From contig CAVSSM010000011.1 in NCBI GenBank assembly GCA_963730605.1, forward strand, positions 67,928 through 131,927: 64,000 nucleotides of DNA, in the 5' to 3' direction. The notes beneath the pieces are model-generated. The model was not told where the DNA came from. It made no database searches and saw only the letters and a list, made by a program, of their open reading frames with translations. The stretch comes from an uncultured Chlamydiae bacterium. Lineage in GTDB: Bacteria > Chlamydiota > Chlamydiia > Chlamydiales > SM23-39. Shown here piece by piece: positions 11,133-61,596 of this stretch (within the stretch, counting starts at the first letter, position 1; each line of letters opens with the position of its first letter). Made by a program: the position numbers and the translations under genes.

Positions 11133-14100
11133 AGCATCAGAAAAGGCCGCTTCACGATCCCGATGAGAGGGTATTCACCCTATTTGATGTAAAACGGCTT
11201 TACTTGAGCCAAAAGAAGAAAATTCTCAGAGCTTCTTTTTGGGGAGCTCTTCTTGCGTTCAGTTTCATTTTGATCAGGTCTGTTCCAAAATATCAAGTTT
11301 CTGCGACTTTTAAAGAGGCTCCCAAATCCATCGAGGGGACAGGAGGCCTGGAAAAGCTTCTTCTCTCAAATGGAAGCGCAAGCTCTCAAGAGTCTCAAAC
11401 AGCCACTTTGATCCAGTCCAATCAAGTCTTAAAACCTCTGGTCGTCCGGATGGGCACCCAAGCTACGGTGCGCAAAGCGGGCCTTTTGTCTCGGGTCTAT
11501 AAGAGGATCAGGGACAATATCCTTTCCGAGAGAGGGCTTAGCTTAAGCGATGTCGATGATTTCGCCTTCCAGAACGTTGTTTACGATGGGGAGAAAACAC
11601 TAACATATAGCCTCAGGTTTGAAGATTCTGAACATTTTTCTATTGGGTCTGGAAAAAAAACAATTGCTTCGGGATCGCTCGGCTCTTGCGTACGTTTGCC
11701 TGAGGCAGAGCTAACGATTGTCAAAGTTCCAAAAGGGCTTAAGGTCGGGACTCATTACTCCCTTTCTATTCAACCTTGGGTTTCTGCAGTGAATGCGATC
11801 CGTTCCAATTTTCGGATAAAGTGCCTCAAACAGCAAAAATCGATTCATGAACTCAAGTTTTTCCATAGGGACCGATATTTTGGGACGGAGCTTTTGAATG
11901 CGTTGACGGAAGAATATCGGAGATATTTAAAGCGGGACCATGATCAGGTTGTCCACGAGCAGCTCAGTTATTTGCAGCAGAAACAAGAAGAAATATGTGC
12001 CAACATGTCCTCGGTTTTCGACGAGTATACAGAATATTTGCAAACCAATCTCAGCCGATCGGGACAATTGGGCTTAACACAAGAGATCGGAGGAATCACT
12101 AAGGAATGCAATGTGCTTGCTAATAAAATCTCTTCGATCGACTTGGAGCTGGATCGGTTAGTTCGAATGGAAGTGGATCAAAAAGCATTTGTTCCAATGG
12201 ATGATACTCCTTTTTCACGCTCTCTCAAAGATACCTTGAGCGCAATATCGGAGTTGAAACAGCAGCGCGATTTAATCGAGTTGTCATTGCCATCTCAAAG
12301 CCGCGCTCTTAATGAGCTGCAGTATGAAAACAAAAAAGGGGAATTGAAAGAGGTTCGAGACCAGCTTTGCGCGATGCAGCATCTTCTCGATGGAATTGAA
12401 AAGCATACGCCGCTTTCTCAGGACGCGTTATTCGATGCGGGAGAATATCTCGGAGCTTGGGCTGGCCGTTTAGCTGATTCCCAAGAGGAAGACAGAAAAG
12501 GGCTGGCTGAGTATCTCGAAAACGCCGTCCGGCTTCTTTCTATGCAAGAAAAAATGGTTCAGGAACAAATCCATTATGCCCACGACACTCCAGCCGCGTT
12601 CAAAGGCATCGATTTAACGACGGCCCGGGCTCTTTTCCTAGAATACTACAAAAAGCTCGATCAAATCGCAGAAGGGGTAAGCCATTTTTCTCGCTTAGCG
12701 GATGAAATTGAGAGAGGCGATTTCGAGATCAGTTCTTTAAGCGCCGTGCTCTTGGATCCCCTAAGCCAGCGTCTGATTCAACAAGCAAGCGAGATTGCCC
12801 TCAAATTGAAGGATGAAAAACATCATAGCGAAAAAGAAGGAAGCCGGTGGGCAGAGGAGTTGTCGCTGCAAAAAAAAATCCTCAAAGAACATCTGGATCA
12901 ACTTTTTAAACTCGAACAAGTGAAATCCGATCTAGTCCAAAATAGGATCGATGCTTTGCAGGCAATCAGATTCGGCTCCATTTCGGGGCAAATTTCCGTT
13001 TTGCAAGAGAGACTGGCCGATTCCGTCAAAGAGCGGAAGACCGCGCTTTTGAAGGAGAAAACAATCCTGGAAGAAAAAGTGAGGCAAATTCTAAATGGCC
13101 TCACCGATATTCCCGAAAGGTGGCGAAGGGAGAAATGGCTGAACTTAAAGAGCCAGATGGGGATCAAAATGGTCCAAGGGTTGACCGAACTTGTCGAATC
13201 AAAGACAATTAGCTCTCATCTCCACCATGTCGAATCAAAACCTCTCGATATTGCGACCCTTCCTACCACTCCCTGTTCCCCAGGGCTTTTGGTCAAAGCC
13301 TTCCTGGGTGCCATGCTGGCCGGATTCTTTGTGTTCTCCCGCGCCTTTCTCGGGGCGGTTTTGAAGGGATTCCCCTCAACGAAAGAAAAACTTTGTGCGA
13401 TGGGATACCCTGTTCTCGGCGAGATCTCAACGGTTTGCGATGGTCCCGGGACAGAGCCTCGCGGGGCGGATCTGGAAGCCCTTCGGCAAATATTTCTTTT
13501 CCTCGACAAAGAGCCCATACCGGGAGTGATTGAAAAAACGGGAATTGGCTCCTCAGATTTTTCAGCTGGAGCGAGGGACATGGCCAAAGGCAAGGCTGCG
13601 GAAACACGAGAAGGTCCAGTGGACCTTCGCAGTGCGGAGCAGATGAGCACAGCGAATTGCCTCGGAAGCGAAGATGAAAAATCTGAGTCAAAGCCGACGC
13701 CGCACCAAAACCGATTTTTCAATCGCGAGCGGTATAAAGTGAAAGTTGTTGGCCTTATCGAAGGCAAAGGCCCCGATTATTCTTTTGCGCTGGCAGAGCA
13801 TTTTTCCCGCATGTCCTTGCGCCCACTGGTCATCCGATGCGATTTCAACATGAAGTTCAACCGGGAAGACCTGCCGGGGGTCTTGCAGGTTTGGAAAGAG
13901 GAGATCTCCAGCCCACCTCTCAAGAGGAGGCAGGGCTACGATCTTCTCACGTCCGGCGGATTCACCCCTTACGGGGCGGAAGTCATCCGGTCGCTTGCAT
14001 TTCAAAACTCACTTGATAAGTTTAAAAAAGAGTATGACTTTGTCTTGATGGTCTTTCGCTCGCCGCTGAACCTCGCGGACAGCTTGGCGCCTCTTTCCCT

Positions 14101-14221: not shown

Positions 14222-15177
14222 CAGGCAAGCGCAAAAAAATTCTTGTAGCAGGAGGAGCAGGATTCCTAGGCTCTCATCTCTCTCTGAGGCTTTTGAAAGA
14301 AGGCAACGAGGTTCTATGTGTCGATAATTTCTACACAGGCAGCCGCGATAATTTGCTCTCTTTAATGGAACATCCTCGTTTCGAAGTGATGCGCCACGAC
14401 ATCTGTTTCCCTCTACATGTGGAGGTGGACGAGATCTATAACTTTGCCTGCCCGGCATCCCCTTTCCACTACCAGCGCGATCCCATCCAGACGGCGAAGA
14501 CCAGCTTTCTCGGAGCTCTTCACCTCCTCGGATTGGCCAAGCGCCTCAAAATCAAAATCTTTCAAGCCTCGACGAGCGAAGTCTACGGCGATCCCCATAT
14601 CCATCCGCAAACCGAAGAGTATTGGGGCCACGTCAATCCGATCGGCATCCGATCTTGCTATGATGAAGGAAAGCGGTGCGCTGAAACTCTCTTCTTCGAT
14701 TATTACCGAGTCCATGGCCTTCGCATTAAAGTCGCACGCATCTTCAACACGTTCGGCCCAAGGATGCATCCGAACGATGGCCGAGTTGTCTCCAATTTTA
14801 TTGTCCAAGCCCTTCGCAATGATCCTATTACCGTATACGGAGAAGGCAAGCAAACCCGATCTTTCTGCTATGTGGACGATCTGATCGATGCAGTGATTCG
14901 GATCATGGATACGCCAGATAGCATCACAGGGCCCTTCAACATTGGGAATCCGACCGAGATGCCAGTCATCGACCTTGCGCGGCAAGTTCTGGCCTTAACC
15001 GGCTCTTCTTCCAAGATCGAGTTTGTCCCTTTGCCCTCTGACGACCCGAAACAAAGGCGGCCTGACATTCGGTATGTAAAGGAAGTTTTAGGATGGGAGC
15101 CGAAGGTTCCTTTGCAAGAGGGTCTCAAGGCGACCATCGATCATTTCAGGAGCGTTATTAACCCGCTAGGCAAATAA
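14218..15177 (+). CDS. UDP-glucuronate decarboxylase (UDP-xylose synthase family)
   Basis: [44 protein letters not shown]. Confidence 0.93.
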
Positions 15178-15323
15178 GAGAAAACAAAGGGCACTAGCGA
15201 AGCGCACGAGGTCCCCCCGACGCATCGTCGGGAGGGGTGTGAAAGCCAGATCGAAGCGAAGCGAATCGGCCCGAAGGGAGCCGCAGCAAGCCCTTTGTCT
15301 CTTATTTGAAATAGCGGGTTAAT
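15157..15323. mobile_element. 167-bp palindromic element overlapping the decarboxylase stop and the DMT start
   Basis: TIR ATTAACCCGCTA / TAGCGGGTTAAT; inner IR AAATAAGAGA..ACAAAGGGC / GCCCTTTGTCTCTTATTT; REP-like hairpin at 15210-15238. Confidence 0.85.
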
Positions 15324-30971: not shown

Positions 30972-31149
30972 ATATACACAAATGACTTCAAAAGTTGGTT
31001 TCTGCCTTCGTCGGACAGCCACTGCCTTTGAGCCAGGCTTGCTGGCGCCGAAGCAGCTAAACTTAAAAAGTTTAGCGATGCAGGCGGGCTCAAATGCCGT
31101 GGCAAGGCAACGCAGTCGGAAACCAATTTTTGAGTTGATTTCGGTATAT
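30972..31149. mobile_element. 178-bp palindromic MITE-like element
   Basis: TIR ATATACACAAATGACTTCAAAAGTTGGTTTC / GAAACCAATTTTTGAGTTGATTTCGGTATAT; core at 31027-31094 shared with 46390-46460 and 58124-58229. Confidence 0.85.
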
Positions 31150-31878: not shown

Positions 31879-32255
31879 ACCCTGTCGCAACACATTTGGT
31901 AAACTGTTCGTTCACGAATGAAAATGCTCCGCAAAGGAAATGCACTTGAAAAAGTCAATGCCACGAGTCCAATTTGCCCGCCGTCAGTAAACCAAGTGGA
32001 GCATTTACATAGACCGCTGCTGAAAAAAAATGCAATTGCTCATAACTTTTAGAGCGAGTATGGATGGGATATGAACCTATCCTCCAATTCTTCACGATCC
32101 CTTTACGGCACGCTTTTGGGCGCTTTTCGCGCCTCCGCCCTCGTAAAGATCACCGTCCCGATATTTACTTCGGGCGGTCGACGACGAAAAATCGCCTCAA
32201 AATCGACCATAAATGAATCATTAAGAATTGGAGGATAGGTTCATGGAGGACACCT

Positions 32256-35878: not shown

Positions 35879-35923
35879 GTCAAATATGCTTCTTTAGAGA
35901 GGCAATCTCTCAACTGGTTCAAC

Positions 35924-36096
35924 TTAGGAACTGTCTAAAAATAAGTCGAACCATTTCACGGCCATTATAACGGCTCATCTGTCAGACGGCAATGGCTCAG
36001 TTATATTGCTTGAACATGGACCTCGCCATTGCCGCAGACATCTGAGCCCTTCTAAGAACCGTGCAACGGTTCACTTTATTCTTAGACAGTTCCTTA
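35924..36096. mobile_element. 173-bp palindromic MITE-like element with TTA direct repeats; abuts the porin stop
   Basis: TTA-GGAACTGTCTAA...TTAGACAGTTCC-TTA; inner IR GGCAATGGC / GCCATTGCC. Confidence 0.85.
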
Positions 36097-37230
36097 GAAA
36101 TCGAACCGCGCAGAGGCTGTCAAGCCATGCAGATGCAAATCGCCAGGGAAATCGACGAATCCCTGGAGATAGGTGGTAAATAGGCGCATGACATTTTGTT
36201 CCCAAAGGAGCATGAAGTCATAGCGAATGGAAAAGTCGATGTGATAGTTATTGCAGCTGGAGTATTGTCCCCAACCAAGTCCCACTCCCAATTCGGCAAT
36301 AGGACGCACGGCGCCGATACTCTGAACCCTAGTGGTGACTGCCCCGCCTGTTGCGGTATCCTGTTCTTTATGAGAAAGGTTGTGAAATCTCGTGTAAAGA
36401 AGGCTTCCCGCTGCTTTGCCCTCGAAACGAAATCCTGAAGTGCCTAGCATCCAATGCCCTGCTACCCCTGCATCGGGGCCGATGGCCCATGATTGGGATT
36501 TGACGTGGGCAAAGGGAACTCCCAAATTGATGTTCAGGTTTTGACGCAGGAGTAGCCCTCGCAGACCGGCAAAGGGATCGATTGTGACTTTGGTTCCTTG
36601 GTAGAACGGACGGCTGACCATGAGGTCCAAGATGTCTAAATTCATTCTCCAATGAGAACTCACTGAAGGCGCTGTTAGAGGTGTAGTAGTAAACCAATCT
36701 TGAGCGGTCCATGCTCCTGGAGCCCCTGAGGGGAGCGCCGGCGCCGTTTGAGCAGTAGAGGTTTTTTGATGCAGCCATGTGTATTCGGCCCAGCCTACCC
36801 ATCCATCGTAATTTGTGTTAAAGCCAACACCTGCCTTGAATCCGGGCTTGTATTTAAAGTCCTGGAAGGCGATGGCCCCTGGAAGCGGAGGAGTGGCGGT
36901 GCTACTTGGAAGAACGTGGGCTATGTCCATGGAATCCTGAGAAACGTGCCAATAGATAAAGCTGCCGAATACATCGAAATCCCATCCACGCACGTCTATT
37001 CCTGCGGGCGCATTGTACGCTGGGCAACAACATCTTTTCTCCATTGGGAGCGGATCTCCTGGCCCAACGTTGCAGCAAGGATTTTGCTTCTCATTGCAGT
37101 ATGGCTTTTCTTTTTCTTTAGGTTTTTCAACGCAGCGAGAAGCTTCTTTCTCTCTTTTGGCAATGTTTTGAGAAAAAAGCGCAGTGGCTGCGAAAATTGC
37201 AGCTGAACAAATGACGAAAACTCTTGTCAT
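36094..37230 (-). CDS. MOMP-like/Lpg1974-family outer membrane porin with Cys-rich N-terminus
   Basis: Signal peptide, PAYNAPA, FIYWH, YKPGFKAG, C-terminal DLHLHGLTASARFDF. Confidence 0.8.
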   Translation of the reverse strand: MTRVFVICSAAIFAATALFSQNIAKREKEASRCVEKPKEKEKPYCNEKQNPCCNVGPGDPLPMEKRCCCPAYNAPAGIDVRGWDFDVFGSFIYWHVSQDSMDIAHVLPSSTATPPLPGAIAFQDFKYKPGFKAGVGFNTNYDGWVGWAEYTWLHQKTSTAQTAPALPSGAPGAWTAQDWFTTTPLTAPSVSSHWRMNLDILDLMVSRPFYQGTKVTIDPFAGLRGLLLRQNLNINLGVPFAHVKSQSWAIGPDAGVAGHWMLGTSGFRFEGKAAGSLLYTRFHNLSHKEQDTATGGAVTTRVQSIGAVRPIAELGVGLGWGQYSSCNNYHIDFSIRYDFMLLWEQNVMRLFTTYLQGFVDFPGDLHLHGLTASARFDF

Positions 37231-37339: not shown

Positions 37340-38308
37340 TCAAAACGCCGGCAGGACGGCTCCCTTGTATTTATCTAAGATGAACTGACGCATTTTGTCC
37401 GAGGTCATCGCGGCCTTCAATGCTGCAATATCAGGGCGAGTTTCATCGCCGATGCGGATGGCAAGGATGTTGGCGTAGGGCGAATCCTTGCTTTCCAATG
37501 CCAAAGCGTCCGCTAAGGGAGAAAAGCCGGCTTCCAGAGCGTAATTCGTGTTGATGACTGCAGCTGCGACATCATCGAGGACGCGGGGCAGCATCGCCGC
37601 ATCGACTTCTATAAATTTAAAGTTCTTAGGGTTGTCTTTGATGTTCAAAACGGTGGCGGAGAGATTATTCGGGTCGTCGAGCTCGATCAGTCCCTCGGAG
37701 CGCAGCAAGAGCAACGCTCTTGCCTCATTAGTGGGATCGTTCGGGATCCCGATCTTCGCGCCATTTTGCAAATCCGCGAGCGTTGGGATTCTTTTCGAAT
37801 AGATTCCCATCGGCTCGATCTCGATTTTCGCGATCGACTCTATCGGATAATGGAACTGTTTGATCTGCTCGTCCATGAAAGGGATGTGTTGGAAAAAATT
37901 GGCCGCCACCTCCTTGTTTGCAAGCGCTCGGTTCGGAATGTTGTAGTCGTCCGTCACGATAATCTCGAGATCAAACCCTTGCGCTTTTAACTCAGGTTTT
38001 ACAAATTCCAGCATCTGGGCATGGGGAACCGGCGTCGCTGCGACTTTGAAAGCCCCTTTTTTTGAGCTGCTGCAGGCGGAAAGAGATAGAATGAGACAAA
38101 AGTAACCAAAAAGATGAGGCAGTTGCAAAACTCCACACCTGCGAAAAATCGATGATTTTGGCGACCTCTCGTCAGAACCGGCATGCCGGTTCTGACAGCA
38201 GCGACGAGACCATACTTGAGAAAGTAGGCGAGTCGCTGCTGCGACGAGGGGCGCCAAAAGGGCGGTTTTGCGCGGTGAAGAGTTTTGCAATTGGCTCAGA
38301 CGTTTCAT
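37340..38308 (-). CDS. metQ: Methionine ABC transporter lipoprotein; signal peptide interrupted by an in-frame element
   Basis: Lipobox LSAC, VAATPVPHA, NFFQH, PNDPTNEARAL, SPYAN. Confidence 0.93.
   Translation of the reverse strand: MKRLSQLQNSSPRKTALLAPLVAAATRLLSQVWSRRCCQNRHAGSDERSPKSSIFRRCGVLQLPHLFGYFCLILSLSACSSSKKGAFKVAATPVPHAQMLEFVKPELKAQGFDLEIIVTDDYNIPNRALANKEVAANFFQHIPFMDEQIKQFHYPIESIAKIEIEPMGIYSKRIPTLADLQNGAKIGIPNDPTNEARALLLLRSEGLIELDDPNNLSATVLNIKDNPKNFKFIEVDAAMLPRVLDDVAAAVINTNYALEAGFSPLADALALESKDSPYANILAIRIGDETRPDIAALKAAMTSDKMRQFILDKYKGAVLPAF
38115..38298. mobile_element. 184-bp palindromic element with GA/GA flanks, in frame in metQ
   Basis: TIR TGAGGCAGTTGCAAAACTC / GAGTTTTGCAATTGGCTCA; perfect palindrome GTCAGAACCGGCATGCCGGTTCTGAC at 38171-38196. 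Confidence 0.9.
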
Positions 38309-38979
38309 AATTTTCCTAAGGTTTTATTCACTGCGTAAACGGCGGCGTTGCCCGCCCATTGGATACATTGGACAAGTAAAATAAGAAGCGCGATGGTCGC
38401 AACCATGATCGGCGTGTTGAATCGGTTATAGCCGTATTGGATGGCGACCTGCCCAAGCCCTCCTCCGCCGACGAGGCCAGCCATGGCGCTGTACCCGACG
38501 AGGTTGACGAGCGTCAAGGTCATGCTTGAAATGAGCGAGGGAAGGGCTTCCGGCAAGAGAATTTTTAGGATGATTTGCCAGACGTTCGATCCCATGATGG
38601 TCCCTGCTTCGATGAGATGGCTATCGACCTCGGCGAGGTTCGCCTCGACGAGCCGGGCAAGGAAAGGAGCGGCTGCGAGAGATAGAGGGACGATCGAAGC
38701 GGTCGTGCCTAGACTGGTTCCAACGAGCCACCGGGTGAATGGGATGAGCGCGACCATGAGGATGGCAAAGGGGAAGGATCGCCCGATGTTGACGAGGGAC
38801 TCCAGCGTTTTATAGACCGGAAGATTTTGTTTCAGCCGCCCCTTCCCTGTGAGCACGAGAATCAGGCCGAGCGGCAGGCCGAGAAGGAGGCCGAAAAATG
38901 CGGAGGCAAAGACCATGTAGAGGGTGTTTCCTAGTTGAGAGGGGAGAAGTTGGAGGGCGAGGTCGAGGTTAGATTGCAT
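38305..38979 (-). CDS. metI: Methionine ABC transporter permease
   Basis: NIGRSFPFAILM, GYSAMAGLVGGGGLG. Confidence 0.93.
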   Translation of the reverse strand: MQSNLDLALQLLPSQLGNTLYMVFASAFFGLLLGLPLGLILVLTGKGRLKQNLPVYKTLESLVNIGRSFPFAILMVALIPFTRWLVGTSLGTTASIVPLSLAAAPFLARLVEANLAEVDSHLIEAGTIMGSNVWQIILKILLPEALPSLISSMTLTLVNLVGYSAMAGLVGGGGLGQVAIQYGYNRFNTPIMVATIALLILLVQCIQWAGNAAVYAVNKTLGKL

Positions 38980-39973
38980 GTTCGAGCGCCTCCCAATGGA
39001 CCCCTTGTTCCGTAAGATAGCGAAGGGCCGATCCTACGCCATCGGCAGAACCGGTCAGCTCGATCACCAAGGTCCCAACGCTTACGGTTTGGAGATGGTC
39101 GATCCAGCCGAGCAAAATGTTCGCCTCGACATCAAATTTTTTTACGATGTGGGAAATGACCGGCTGGGCCGCAGCCTTTCCTTTGTAACGGAGGCGCAAA
39201 AGTTTTCTTTTCGGAGACGTTGGCTGGATCCAGTCAGGGGGGATTTCATGGATAGAGCGCTCTATGAACCGCTGCGTCGTTGGATGCTGGGGATCTCCAA
39301 AGACTTGAGAGACCGGCCCAACTTCTATGATCCTCCCCGCTTCGATGACGGCCGTTTTATTGCAGATTTTTTTGATCACTTCCATGTCATGGGTAATCAA
39401 GACGATCGTAATCCTGAGTTCCTTATTCAGGGTTTTCAAAAGATCCAGAATTTCTTGGGTCGTTCTGGGGTCGAGAGCGGATGTCGCCTCGTCGCAAAAT
39501 AGGACTTCAGGATGGTTGGCCAACGCGCGGGCGATCCCGACTCTTTGCTTTTCTCCGCCGCTGAGGGAGTTCGGATGACAATCGATTTTTGAAAGGAGGC
39601 CGACGAAACGGAGTAGTTCTTCGACCCGGGATTCTTGAGTTTGCTTAAGTTTTTTTGCGATCTCGAGAGGATAGGCCACATTGCCTCGGACGGTGCGGCT
39701 GGAGAGCAAATTGAAATGTTGGAAGATCATCCCGGTCTTCATGTAAAAATCCCGCAAGGCTTTTCCAGAGAGTGAACCGATATCGATACCCTGAAACAAG
39801 ATTTTTCCCGAGCTCGGCAAGATCAGCCGCGAAAGACAGCGGATAAGGGTCGATTTACCTGCCCCGCTCATTCCGATGATGCCGTAGACATCCCCTTTTG
39901 CAATTTTTAAAGAAATTTCTCTCAAGGCTTGAGTTGTCTTGAACGTCTTTGAAACAGCTATCGCTTCGAGCAT
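38969..39973 (-). CDS. metN: Methionine ABC transporter ATPase
   Basis: GMSGAGKST, LSGGEKQRVGIARAL, CDEATSALDP, NIL domain. Confidence 0.93.
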   Translation of the reverse strand: MLEAIAVSKTFKTTQALREISLKIAKGDVYGIIGMSGAGKSTLIRCLSRLILPSSGKILFQGIDIGSLSGKALRDFYMKTGMIFQHFNLLSSRTVRGNVAYPLEIAKKLKQTQESRVEELLRFVGLLSKIDCHPNSLSGGEKQRVGIARALANHPEVLFCDEATSALDPRTTQEILDLLKTLNKELRITIVLITHDMEVIKKICNKTAVIEAGRIIEVGPVSQVFGDPQHPTTQRFIERSIHEIPPDWIQPTSPKRKLLRLRYKGKAAAQPVISHIVKKFDVEANILLGWIDHLQTVSVGTLVIELTGSADGVGSALRYLTEQGVHWEALEHAI

Positions 39974-42009: not shown

Positions 42010-42031
42010 AATAAAAAAAGGGAATTTCTAC

Positions 42032-42176
42032 CTCGACTTTGTACAATTTTTGGCGAGCAGATCCAGAGGAAGCGCTCTGCAATTTTTTTCTTTTTTTGCG
42101 AAATTCATAGCCGAAGGCGCTATTTATGAGCAAAAAAAGGAAAAAAGGGCCAGCGATTCTCTCAGAGATGCCGTCA
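42032..42176. mobile_element. Right-truncated copy of the element at 59744-59905
   Basis: 145 bp with 2 visible differences from 59744-59888. Confidence 0.9.
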
Positions 42177-42184
42177 TAAGTCTC

Positions 42185-46338: not shown

Positions 46339-46559
46339 TAAACTCAAATGACATGAAGAATCGGGAATATGGCTAGGAGGCGCCCAGAATTTGAGCCAGG
46401 CGAGAGCCGGCGCCGAAGCAGCTCAACTTGAATAAGTTGGGCGATGCAGGCGGGCTCAAAGGCTGTGGCTGCCCGATGCCGCCACCGGGGTCCCCGAAGA
46501 CGCATCGTCTTTGTGGTGGGGCGCCGCCAGAAACCGATTCCTCATGTTTTTTGAGTATA
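46339..46559. mobile_element. 221-bp palindromic MITE-like element in the tsaB-lon divergent intergenic region
   Basis: TIR ACTCAAATGACATGAAGAATCGG / CCGATTCCTCATGTTTTTTGAGT; shared core 46390-46460; REP-like unit 46487-46521. Confidence 0.85.
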
Positions 46560-46614
46560 ACTCACTTGCTTTTGGCTTGGCGATATTCCATAAATAAAGT
46601 TATGAGAGGTACAT

Positions 46615-57157: not shown

Positions 57158-58060
57158 ATGCTAGAGTTTAGCCAGGCCGTGCCGCGCTTTTTGTCCCACC
57201 TTGGGCTCGCGAGCGGGGCCTCGGAGCACACCCTGAGAGCCTACCGGCTCGACCTGGAAGCCCTTGCCGTATTCGCAAAGGGAGAGCCGATTTCCAAACG
57301 GCTCATCCGCCGCTATCTGGCCCACCTCCATGAAAGCGGCATGAGCGTCCGGACCGTTTTAAGGCGCCTTTCGGCCCTTAGGAGTTTTTTTAAATTCGCC
57401 ATGCGGGAAAAACTCGTAAAGCAAAATCCCTTAGAAGAGATCGAGAGCCCAAAGAAAGAAAAAAGGCTTCCGGTATGGATCACCTACGCCGAGGTGGAGA
57501 TCCTCTTTTCACAGCCCGATACTTCGACCTATTTGGGCCTCCGCGACCGGGCCATCATGGAGCTTTTCTATAGCTCGGGACTCCGTTTGAGCGAGCTTGC
57601 TTTTTTGAGCCGAGGCTGTTGCGACTTGAAAAATCAAACGCTCCGCATCTTCGGCAAAGGGAAGAAGGAGAGGCAGACGCCCATTACGAAAACGGCGGCG
57701 GAATGGATAAGCAATTATTTAACCCATCCCGAGCGGCCGTTCATTGAAAAGGATCCGGAGGCCGTTTTTTTAAACAAATGGGGCATGAGGCTGACGCCCC
57801 GTTCGATCGATCGGAATTTCGCGGCGTATCTCAAGGCAAGCGGACTTTCCGAGAGGATCACGCCCCACACGATCCGCCACAGCATCGCGACCCATTGGCT
57901 CGAAAATGGGATGGATTTGAAAACGATCCAGATGCTCCTCGGCCATACAACGCTTTCGACAACGACGATCTACACGCATGTTTCCGCCAAGCTAAAACGG
58001 GAAGTCTACGACAAGGCCCACCCTCGGGCAAAACATATTGCGACCGGTCAAAAAGAGTGA
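57158..58060 (+). CDS. xerC: Tyrosine recombinase XerC
   Basis: RDRAIMELFYSSGLRLSEL, GKGKKER, PHTIRHSIATH, LLGH, IYTHV, HPRA. Confidence 0.88.
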   Translation: MLEFSQAVPRFLSHLGLASGASEHTLRAYRLDLEALAVFAKGEPISKRLIRRYLAHLHESGMSVRTVLRRLSALRSFFKFAMREKLVKQNPLEEIESPKKEKRLPVWITYAEVEILFSQPDTSTYLGLRDRAIMELFYSSGLRLSELAFLSRGCCDLKNQTLRIFGKGKKERQTPITKTAAEWISNYLTHPERPFIEKDPEAVFLNKWGMRLTPRSIDRNFAAYLKASGLSERITPHTIRHSIATHWLENGMDLKTIQMLLGHTTLSTTTIYTHVSAKLKREVYDKAHPRAKHIATGQKE

Positions 58061-58321
58061 ATCTGCCGGCGTCCTACCCCAAAGATGATGCATCTTTTGG
58101 GGACCCCTCGGACAGCCACTGAATTTGAGACCCGCCTGCACCCCACCCCAAAGACGATGCGTCTTCGTGGACCCCGGCGCTAAACTTTTCAAGTTTAGCT
58201 GCTTCGACGCCGACTTCGTCTGGCTCAAATTCAGGGCGCTGCTTCGCACAAAAAATGTCTCCTAGACATTTTTTGTGATTCCGCAGTGGCAGTTTTCACT
58301 CTTTTTGACCGGTCGCAATAT
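58035..58321. mobile_element. 287-bp composite palindromic element supplying the xerC stop codon
   Basis: Perfect 27-bp TIR ATATTGCGACCGGTCAAAAAGAGTGAA; REP-like units at 58077-58107 and 58141-58176; shared core in reverse orientation. Confidence 0.9.
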
Positions 58322-58360
58322 AGATTTTCTTTTTTCCTTGCCTCGCCCTATACTCAAGTC

Positions 58361-59734: not shown

Positions 59735-59743
59735 ATGCAGTAT

Positions 59744-59905
59744 CTCGACTTTGTACAATTTTTGGCGAGCAGATCCAGAGGAAGCGCTCTGCAATTTTTT
59801 TCTTTTTTTGCGAAATTCATAGCCGAAGGCACTATTTATGAGCAAAAAAAGGAAAAAAGGGCCAGCGATTCTCTCGGAGATGCCGTCACAAAGTACAAAG
59901 TCGAG
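59744..59905. mobile_element. 162-bp palindromic MITE-like element (complete copy)
   Basis: TIR CTCGACTTTGTAC / GTACAAAGTCGAG; T-rich and A-rich inner arms. Confidence 0.9.
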
Positions 59906-59973
59906 GATCCACTTGCCGCCCAAAATATGGAATTGCAATCCTATTCTGTTTGTGGATATCTTAAATGAAAAAA

Positions 59974-61290: not shown

Positions 61291-61304
61291 CCCCTATGAT
61301 TGTC

Positions 61305-61467
61305 TATACCACGCCCGCTTAGGTTGTGTGAATTTTGACAGCGGATTTTGCGTTCTAGTAGCGTTGCGGAGATCGCCGTAAACTTTAGTATGTTAACAAG
61401 ATCGAGCAATGCGCTGGGGCGCAAAAGGCGCTGTCAAAATTCACTCAAAATGAGTGGGCGCGGTATA
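61305..61467. mobile_element. 163-bp palindromic MITE-like element
   Basis: TIR TATACCACGCCCGCT / AGTGGGCGCGGTATA; inner IR GTGAATTTTGACAGCG / CGCTGTCAAAATTCAC. Confidence 0.88.
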
Positions 61468-61596
61468 TAATCATTGCATGATCCTTGTTAGTGCACGCCA
61501 CCTCGATTCCGACTCCTCTTCTTCAGGCTGTCCGTCTTCTGGTTTTCTGGCTTTGTTGCAGTCAAACCGTAAGTGCCTCTACCTTCAGTTGCGCCT

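Follow-up and report, generated by a model that had tools for sequence, protein, structure and literature searches.

A recent in-frame MITE insertion in the signal peptide region of a chlamydial metQ gene

How a lipoprotein gene could accommodate 62 additional codons within its signal peptide is the question raised by metQ in an uncultured Chlamydiae bacterium (genome G000), which we analysed in a window of 64,000 nucleotides, the whole stretch of DNA considered here and the one to which plain coordinates refer. The gene (37340-38308, minus strand) encodes 322 amino acids in an open reading frame, the 62 inserted residues included. Its product was identified as MetQ/NlpA by PF03180 (E 1e-85); the best NCBIfam matches, PRK11063 and TIGR00363, both scored below their own cut-offs. 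It is the sole MetQ that we found in G000, and MetQ was present in 12 of the 41 genomes searched, G000 included. On the same strand lie metI, encoding an intact permease of 224 amino acids (38305-38979; PF00528), and metN, encoding an intact ATPase of 334 amino acids (38969-39973; PF00005 and NIL), metQ being the last gene of an intact metN-metI-metQ operon. The initial annotation of this DNA had described the metQ start as coupled to metI; the ATG does overlap the metI stop as ATGA (38305-38308, minus strand), an overlap also found in the sister genome G003, and we infer translational coupling from it.

The net insertion amounts to 186 bp, or 62 codons, placed in frame at codon 4, and it shifts the lipobox cysteine from residue 17 in the empty allele to residue 79 in the filled one, with the frame left open as first annotated. 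The native h-region and lipobox are intact (38072-38113, minus strand; Cys79 codon at 38072-38074). The lipobox, LSAC at residues 76-79, lies downstream of the h-region and follows the pattern L-A/S-G/A-C given in the accessible text of PMC9360617, as expected for Sec/SPII substrates. The n-region of the filled allele does not have the short, positively charged form usual for such substrates: it is positively charged and 65 residues long, compared with leaders of 14-24 residues in orthologues.

The inserted element is a MITE, or miniature inverted-repeat transposable element. Its ends are fixed at 38116-38297, a length of 182 bp, by the common ends of six copies found in G000 by BLAST. The left terminal inverted repeat, GAGGCAGTTGCAAAACTC (38116-38133, plus strand), pairs over 18 bp with the right one, GAGCCAATTGCAAAACTC (38280-38297, minus strand), matching it at 16 of 18 positions, and is of the same type as the ends of the autonomous insertion sequences (ISs) described below. 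The element is bounded by a 4-bp target-site duplication with one mismatch. The ancestral copy, AGAC, is on the start-codon side (38298-38301, plus strand), which fits the empty site in G003 and the joint between 38111 and 38298 in contigs from sequencing run X3; comparison with empty alleles shows one change in the second copy, AGAT (38112-38115, plus strand), giving His where the empty allele reads Arg. Perfect 4-bp duplications (TCTA, CCTA and AATA) flank three other G000 copies, and an exact 4-bp duplication was seen in 39 of 76 related elements, any other length from 2 to 6 bp occurring in at most 8 of the 76. The total of 186 bp given in the initial annotation is therefore correct, but its division into a 184-bp element plus a GA duplication is ruled out by the copy ends, the empty site and the duplications of related elements; the six genomic copies give 182 bp plus 4 bp.

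Six-frame translation revealed no transposase, and three of the six frames through the element are open. The element folds as a long hairpin that is as strong as had been proposed (-99.1 kcal/mol, z -10.7, none of 200 shuffles being equally stable), with a perfect 26-bp internal palindrome detected by self-match at 38171-38196. This hairpin is kept across 12 aligned copies, 28 of the 51 pairs having changed on both sides. A known RNA family was also considered and set aside, as no Rfam family scored above threshold (best aspS, E 0.8).

The absence of a transposase distinguishes the metQ element from the IS1182/IS5-related ISs that it resembles in its 4-bp duplication and its terminal repeats (16 of 17 positions identical to one end of the IS L304). 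The autonomous ISs with the ends of the MITE (L189, L194, L301, L303 and L304) are 1.56-1.60 kb long and flanked by 4-bp duplications; elements of 1602 bp, among the terminal-repeat matches listed, likewise have 4-bp duplications and encode a transposase of 376 amino acids. This partner transposase contains DDE_Tnp_1 and DUF772 domains and scores best against NF033551 (IS1182), with 94.7 bits for a cut-off of 270; as it also falls below the IS5 cut-offs, the name IS1182/IS5-like is approximate. Of 103 genomes of the family, 10 contain matches to it, with ends of the same type on either side (L301, L303, L304); neither the IS nor its transposase was found in the G000 assembly, which is 83% complete. 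The MITE was presumably mobilised by an IS1182/IS5-like DDE transposase of this kind.

Of 24 other genomes in the host family, 9 contain related elements, and there were matches in 10 of 41 genomes overall; none was found in the 16 genomes of other families in the order (0/16). A scan for the terminal repeats returned at least 124 loci (L175-L298). Among the matches listed, these repeats bound elements of 73-232 bp in Lentisphaerota, Desulfobacterota, Zetaproteobacteria and others, suggesting that this group of ISs has spawned MITEs across many phyla. The closest named record among the matches listed is L207, in a Candidatus Rhabdochlamydia metagenome-assembled genome (76%), which makes an environmental chlamydia the likely host.

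Three of the six G000 copies are in frame, one breaks a gene and two are intergenic. All three in-frame copies lie no further in than codon eight, and each of the proteins concerned has a hydrophobic leader: MetQ, a TraH-family protein and a glycosyltransferase-like protein. The oldest in-frame copy, on contig C10, is shorter by 33 bp, which is divisible by three, and differs by three substitutions, yet its frame is kept; the gene-breaking copy, at C2:168397, interrupts its gene in mid-sequence and persists. In other genomes, signal peptides clearly contain in-frame insertions at L006 and L016 and probably at L207, and L255 lies in a protein without a leader, while L020, where the start is probably downstream, and L017, which is not frame-neutral, were left uncounted. 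Eighty related elements at other loci, many of them outside the chlamydiae and some with flanks of only 300 bp, are mostly without in-frame fusion. The TraH-family protein (PF06122) lies in a gene cluster at C8:11653-16709 that suggests an integrated conjugative region.

The alignment of orthologues that had been called for found the metQ site empty in all 11 orthologues examined, with leaders of 14-24 residues. The closest of them, in G003, whose mature part is 93% identical, has the sequence MKRLSVCFCLIFFLAAC; it contains one copy of the target, starts with MKRL and has its lipobox cysteine at residue 17. Two X3-run contigs join 38111 to 38298, skipping a net 186 bp. Removing the insert does, as claimed at the outset, restore a canonical signal. 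A contig from run X1 provides another empty allele and one from run X2 a filled junction with 29 element bases; this sequencing-run evidence covers the parts of the locus that the contigs span, and runs of the P1 study with pieces identical to G000, which may have been derived from the same data, were not counted as independent. Because the site is empty in relatives and the metQ element is 100% identical to two other G000 copies, the insertion is recent. The 31 synonymous and 16 non-synonymous differences from G003 in 244 codons of the mature region are mostly older than the insertion and were not used.

Could the filled gene still be translated? A strong 12-bp helix starts about 20 nt past the A of the metQ ATG. 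Opening the transcript from -15 to +18 was calculated to cost 6.6 kcal/mol in the filled allele versus 8.0 kcal/mol in the empty G003 allele; a penalty first appears at +21, where the cost from -15 is 12.2 versus 8.5 kcal/mol. Initiation is thus predicted to be little affected, which gives no support, for this step, to the earlier suggestion that the hairpin could alter translation. The read-through product would have an n-region of 65 residues containing 12 Lys/Arg and 2 Asp/Glu, followed by the native h-region and LSAC. When the insert peptide (residues 5-64) was searched against proteins, none of the 83 candidates, of 177-564 amino acids, reached E <= 0.001. Re-routing to the Tat pathway through the Arg-Arg pairs of the insert was dismissed, as TatC was not found in G000 (83% complete).

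We took a census of repeat elements of at least 110 bp in G000, finding 275 in about 30 sequence clusters. The comparison drew on 1.38 of about 1.7 Mb of G003, in 140 stretches of 85% mean identity; among the 103 elements with both flanks in G003, the site was empty for 82, the element possibly shared for 6 and the state unclear for 15. A stricter filter kept 64 elements of G000 and 7 of 35 from G003, at sites that were intergenic in 32 cases, N-terminal in 20, at the C-terminal end in 12 and internal in 7. Five of the 20 N-terminal rows were dropped by hand, as the start was mis-called or did not precede the site, leaving 22 polarised N-terminal or internal insertions. Gene calls on element-stripped sequence resolved the ends of 178 of the 275 elements and were therefore used for background rates only, the main counts being made without them.

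Codons 2-10 hold 13 of these 22 insertions, where 4.5% would be expected after AT weighting (P 1e-12), 4.2% after TA weighting and 3.1% under a uniform model. Ten of the 12 frame-neutral N-terminal insertions are read through, against 3.8 expected from the six frames of each element itself (P 1.6e-4). The surplus holds when metQ is removed (9 of 11, P 3e-4) and in the uncurated N-terminal rows (10 of 20, P 3e-5), and internal insertions show it as well (5 of 6 against 2.2 expected, P 0.02), so that 15 of the 22 curated sites are read through. A null of 6.8% derived from intergenic copies was rejected as too low, since families differ, in favour of the element-matched one. Those intragenic insertions that survive are thus concentrated in the first codons, in a frame that can be translated, as shown statistically in one genome pair, from a hand-curated list in which insertions are not independent across families.

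Internal in-frame MITEs of 54-105 codons were observed in conserved proteins at C2:111400, C2:393484, C7:30665, C1:671801 and C9:103315, which we take from their motifs to be dehydrogenase E1- and E2-like, V-ATPase subunit I-like and LptD-like. Within the window, a MITE of another family (13526-13724; C11:81453-81651) lies in frame near codon 798 of a protein of about 960 amino acids, with an empty site in G003, and nine more MITEs of other families lie at 15155-15299, 30972-31149, 32070-32245, 35923-36097, 42027-42179, 46339-46560, 58035-58322, 59741-59906 and 61304-61468. Elsewhere in G000, C1:713624 and C1:727341 correspond to the same G003 locus in opposite orientation, suggesting an inverted duplication or an assembly artefact, and very long Gly/Asn-rich repeats at contig ends (C10:54291-83769 and C11:1-15733) probably belong to one large repeat-protein locus.

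All five N-terminal insertions that break the frame contain an internal ATG in frame with the host gene (element-matched P about 0.005). In two further genes no open frame leads in from upstream, and an in-frame ATG is provided by the element. One, in genome G008 (L002:1496-1676), is presumably pyrH, judged by its conserved N-terminal motif; the ATG inside the element is the only in-frame start before that motif, and a likely essential gene may therefore depend on a start supplied by a MITE. The alternative that the pyrH start had mutated was rejected, because the ATG-TGA found there is the end of the upstream gene. The other, in G003 (L003:503-685), is a hemW-like gene interrupted at codon 3, whose site is empty in G000.

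The initial annotation had seen the signal peptide as a safe haven for such an insert and had called for a genome scan for enrichment. We called signal peptides with a home-made hydrophobicity rule, which accepted 256 of 1822 gene calls, or 18.6% after AT weighting. Six of the ten N-terminal read-through cases have a hydrophobic leader (P 0.004) and the other four have none; without metQ the count is 5 of 9 (P 0.014), but in the strictest count, which also sets aside a polytopic transporter, it is 4 of 9 and not significant (P 0.07). If further cases that do not belong to the polarised set are included, the count becomes 10 of 15 to 10 of 19 (P 6e-5 to 9e-4); it is biased upward, because the leader helped in accepting starts. 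Enrichment in signal peptides therefore appears moderate. Read-through insertions were also found at the N-termini of cytoplasmic enzymes, presumably RlmD-like and MenD-like from their sequence motifs, which argues that removal with a signal peptide is unnecessary for an N-terminal insertion to be tolerated. The idea of a safe haven is thus supported at the population level, but the haven would be the N-terminus generally rather than the signal peptide alone. Three more predicted lipoproteins of G000 have MITEs in their signal peptides (C2:284502, C2:407532 and C1:590623), two in frame and one frame-breaking with internal ATGs.

Taking these data together, we consider it probable, though well short of certain, that metQ is read through from its native ATG and that the product is exported and lipidated at Cys79, the 62 extra residues being cut off with the signal peptide. 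The 182-bp MITE is lodged in frame at codon 4, with a copy of the 4-bp target on either side; ribosomes would likely start at the native ATG and cross the element, and the additional peptide would likely be removed following lipidation. As 182 + 4 is a multiple of three and three of the six frames are open, roughly half of all insertions should leave an open reading frame; selection would then keep the ORF-preserving ones where extra residues harm least, at N-termini. Signal-peptide n-regions would probably be favoured above all, because the extra peptide (with its 12 Lys/Arg and 2 Asp/Glu) would stay cytoplasmic and be removed. The metQ insertion would be tolerated rather than adaptive, and export may be less efficient.

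It is also conceivable, if rather unlikely in our estimation, that metQ is dead or crippled and the allele too young to have been purged. Residues 15-25 of the product, TALLAPLVAAA (38234-38266, minus strand), overlooked in the initial annotation, form a candidate decoy h-region ending in AAA, with a Kyte-Doolittle 11-mer mean of 2.03 against 2.3 for the true h-region; they could possibly act as the signal, or targeting by SecA could fail, so that MetQ would be mis-sorted or degraded; alternatively, the hairpin could draw a nuclease, RNase III being known to cleave transcripts of Correia elements (PMC10969869, as far as its accessible text goes). A young insertion, identical to two other copies, would not yet make a dead metQ look decayed, the patchy distribution of MetQ (12 of 41 genomes) suggests that it may be dispensable, and the persisting copy of the same family at C2:168397 indicates that purging is not immediate. 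Against this stand the genome-wide surplus of open frames at N-termini, the older C10 copy, which keeps both the frame and the decoy stretch in an intact gene, and the intact metN and metI in a genome with no other MetQ found.

Translation could instead restart inside the element. No ATG in the metQ frame occurs there, but codon 61, a TTG in that frame with AGGTG 7 nt upstream (38126-38140, minus strand), is a candidate start, also overlooked in the initial annotation, that would give a 19-residue leader and make the long precursor incidental. Restarting appears to operate in this lineage, as suggested by the internal ATGs of all five frame-broken insertions, by pyrH in G008 and hemW in G003 and by the lipoprotein at C1:590623; moreover, a TTG 13 nt from the end is in this frame in metQ, C10, L006, L207 and L255. 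For metQ we nonetheless hold restarting to be improbable: the codon is TTG rather than ATG and is buried in the 12-bp terminal helix, where exposing it costs 28.1 kcal/mol, or 13.1 without the 5' arm; the short leader would carry no Lys or Arg, the C8 and L016 cases use another frame, and restarting alone leaves unexplained why whole frames stay open. Least credible, and very improbable in our view, is that the element has been kept because it tunes the level of MetQ relative to MetN and MetI, through hairpin-dependent processing of the mRNA or slower export. Processing of mRNA by way of MITEs is known in other bacteria (accessible parts of PMC10969869 and PMC2229807) and the hairpin is kept in the family, with its two-sided changes; but the structure is conserved whatever the insertion site, indicating that it serves the element, and neither the 11 orthologues nor close relatives have an insertion at the metQ site.

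In-frame MITE fusions are already known. The RPEs of Rickettsia (Ogata et al. 2000, 2002) are hairpin repeats of about 150-180 bp, often in frame in protein genes, according to the accessible text of PMC10969869 and PMC2229807, the latter reporting that one RPE-bearing enzyme is translated and active (Abergel 2006). The metQ insertion is real, recent and RPE-like: in both systems, as far as those texts describe RPEs, small hairpin repeats of several families per genome lie in frame in unrelated genes of an intracellular bacterium. The likeness is one of mode, and the chlamydial element differs in having 18-bp terminal inverted repeats, a 4-bp duplication and identifiable autonomous ISs; the chlamydial insertions also cluster in codons 2-10, often in signal peptides, a bias absent from the accessible parts of the RPE accounts. 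In-frame occurrence is also described for the QMITEs of Coxiella in the accessible text of PMC5896051. A further parallel is the Yersinia YPAL/RU-2 element in YPO1552, a 168-bp MITE fused in frame at the N-terminus within a predicted signal peptide (Delihas 2007, accessible text of PMC2759123). There the MITE supplies part of the predicted signal of a hypothetical protein, whereas the metQ element interrupts a lipoprotein signal native to a conserved transporter subunit, a situation with known empty sites and many parallel cases. The main text of a MITE survey of 183,232 genomes (PMC11602168), whose supplements may list such elements, mentions neither chlamydiae nor in-frame, signal-peptide or IS1182 cases. 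In a literature search that covered subscription journals thinly, we found neither an account of native signal peptides split by MITEs nor one of chlamydial insertions biased towards the N-terminus. What is new is the measurable preference for N-termini, together with the two routes of survival and the possible signal-peptide refuge. The autotransporter ESPR is likewise a long N-terminal extension before a normal h-region; it is, however, conserved and evolved, unlike the recent, strain-level insertion of selfish DNA in metQ.

We propose, tentatively and as a possibility that may well fail, that the n-regions of signal peptides offer selfish DNA in these chlamydiae a self-cleaning refuge. Several MITE families would survive there in frame, and leaders of 80-110 residues would be translated, tolerated and cut off at export, leaving the mature protein unchanged, while broken N-terminal insertions would survive through a start supplied by the element; MetQ itself would reach lipidation with a leader of 78 residues. 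Without export of MetQ, the insertion would be an ordinary recent knockout. The census provides a measured rule on the positions in proteins at which MITEs can persist, and insertions of this kind would likely cause gene callers and signal-peptide predictors to mis-start or mis-localise lipoproteins in environmental chlamydiae. If the precursors are exported, the genome would constitute a natural panel of filled and empty alleles from which the limits that Sec, Lgt and SPase II set on the length and randomness of the n-region could be read.
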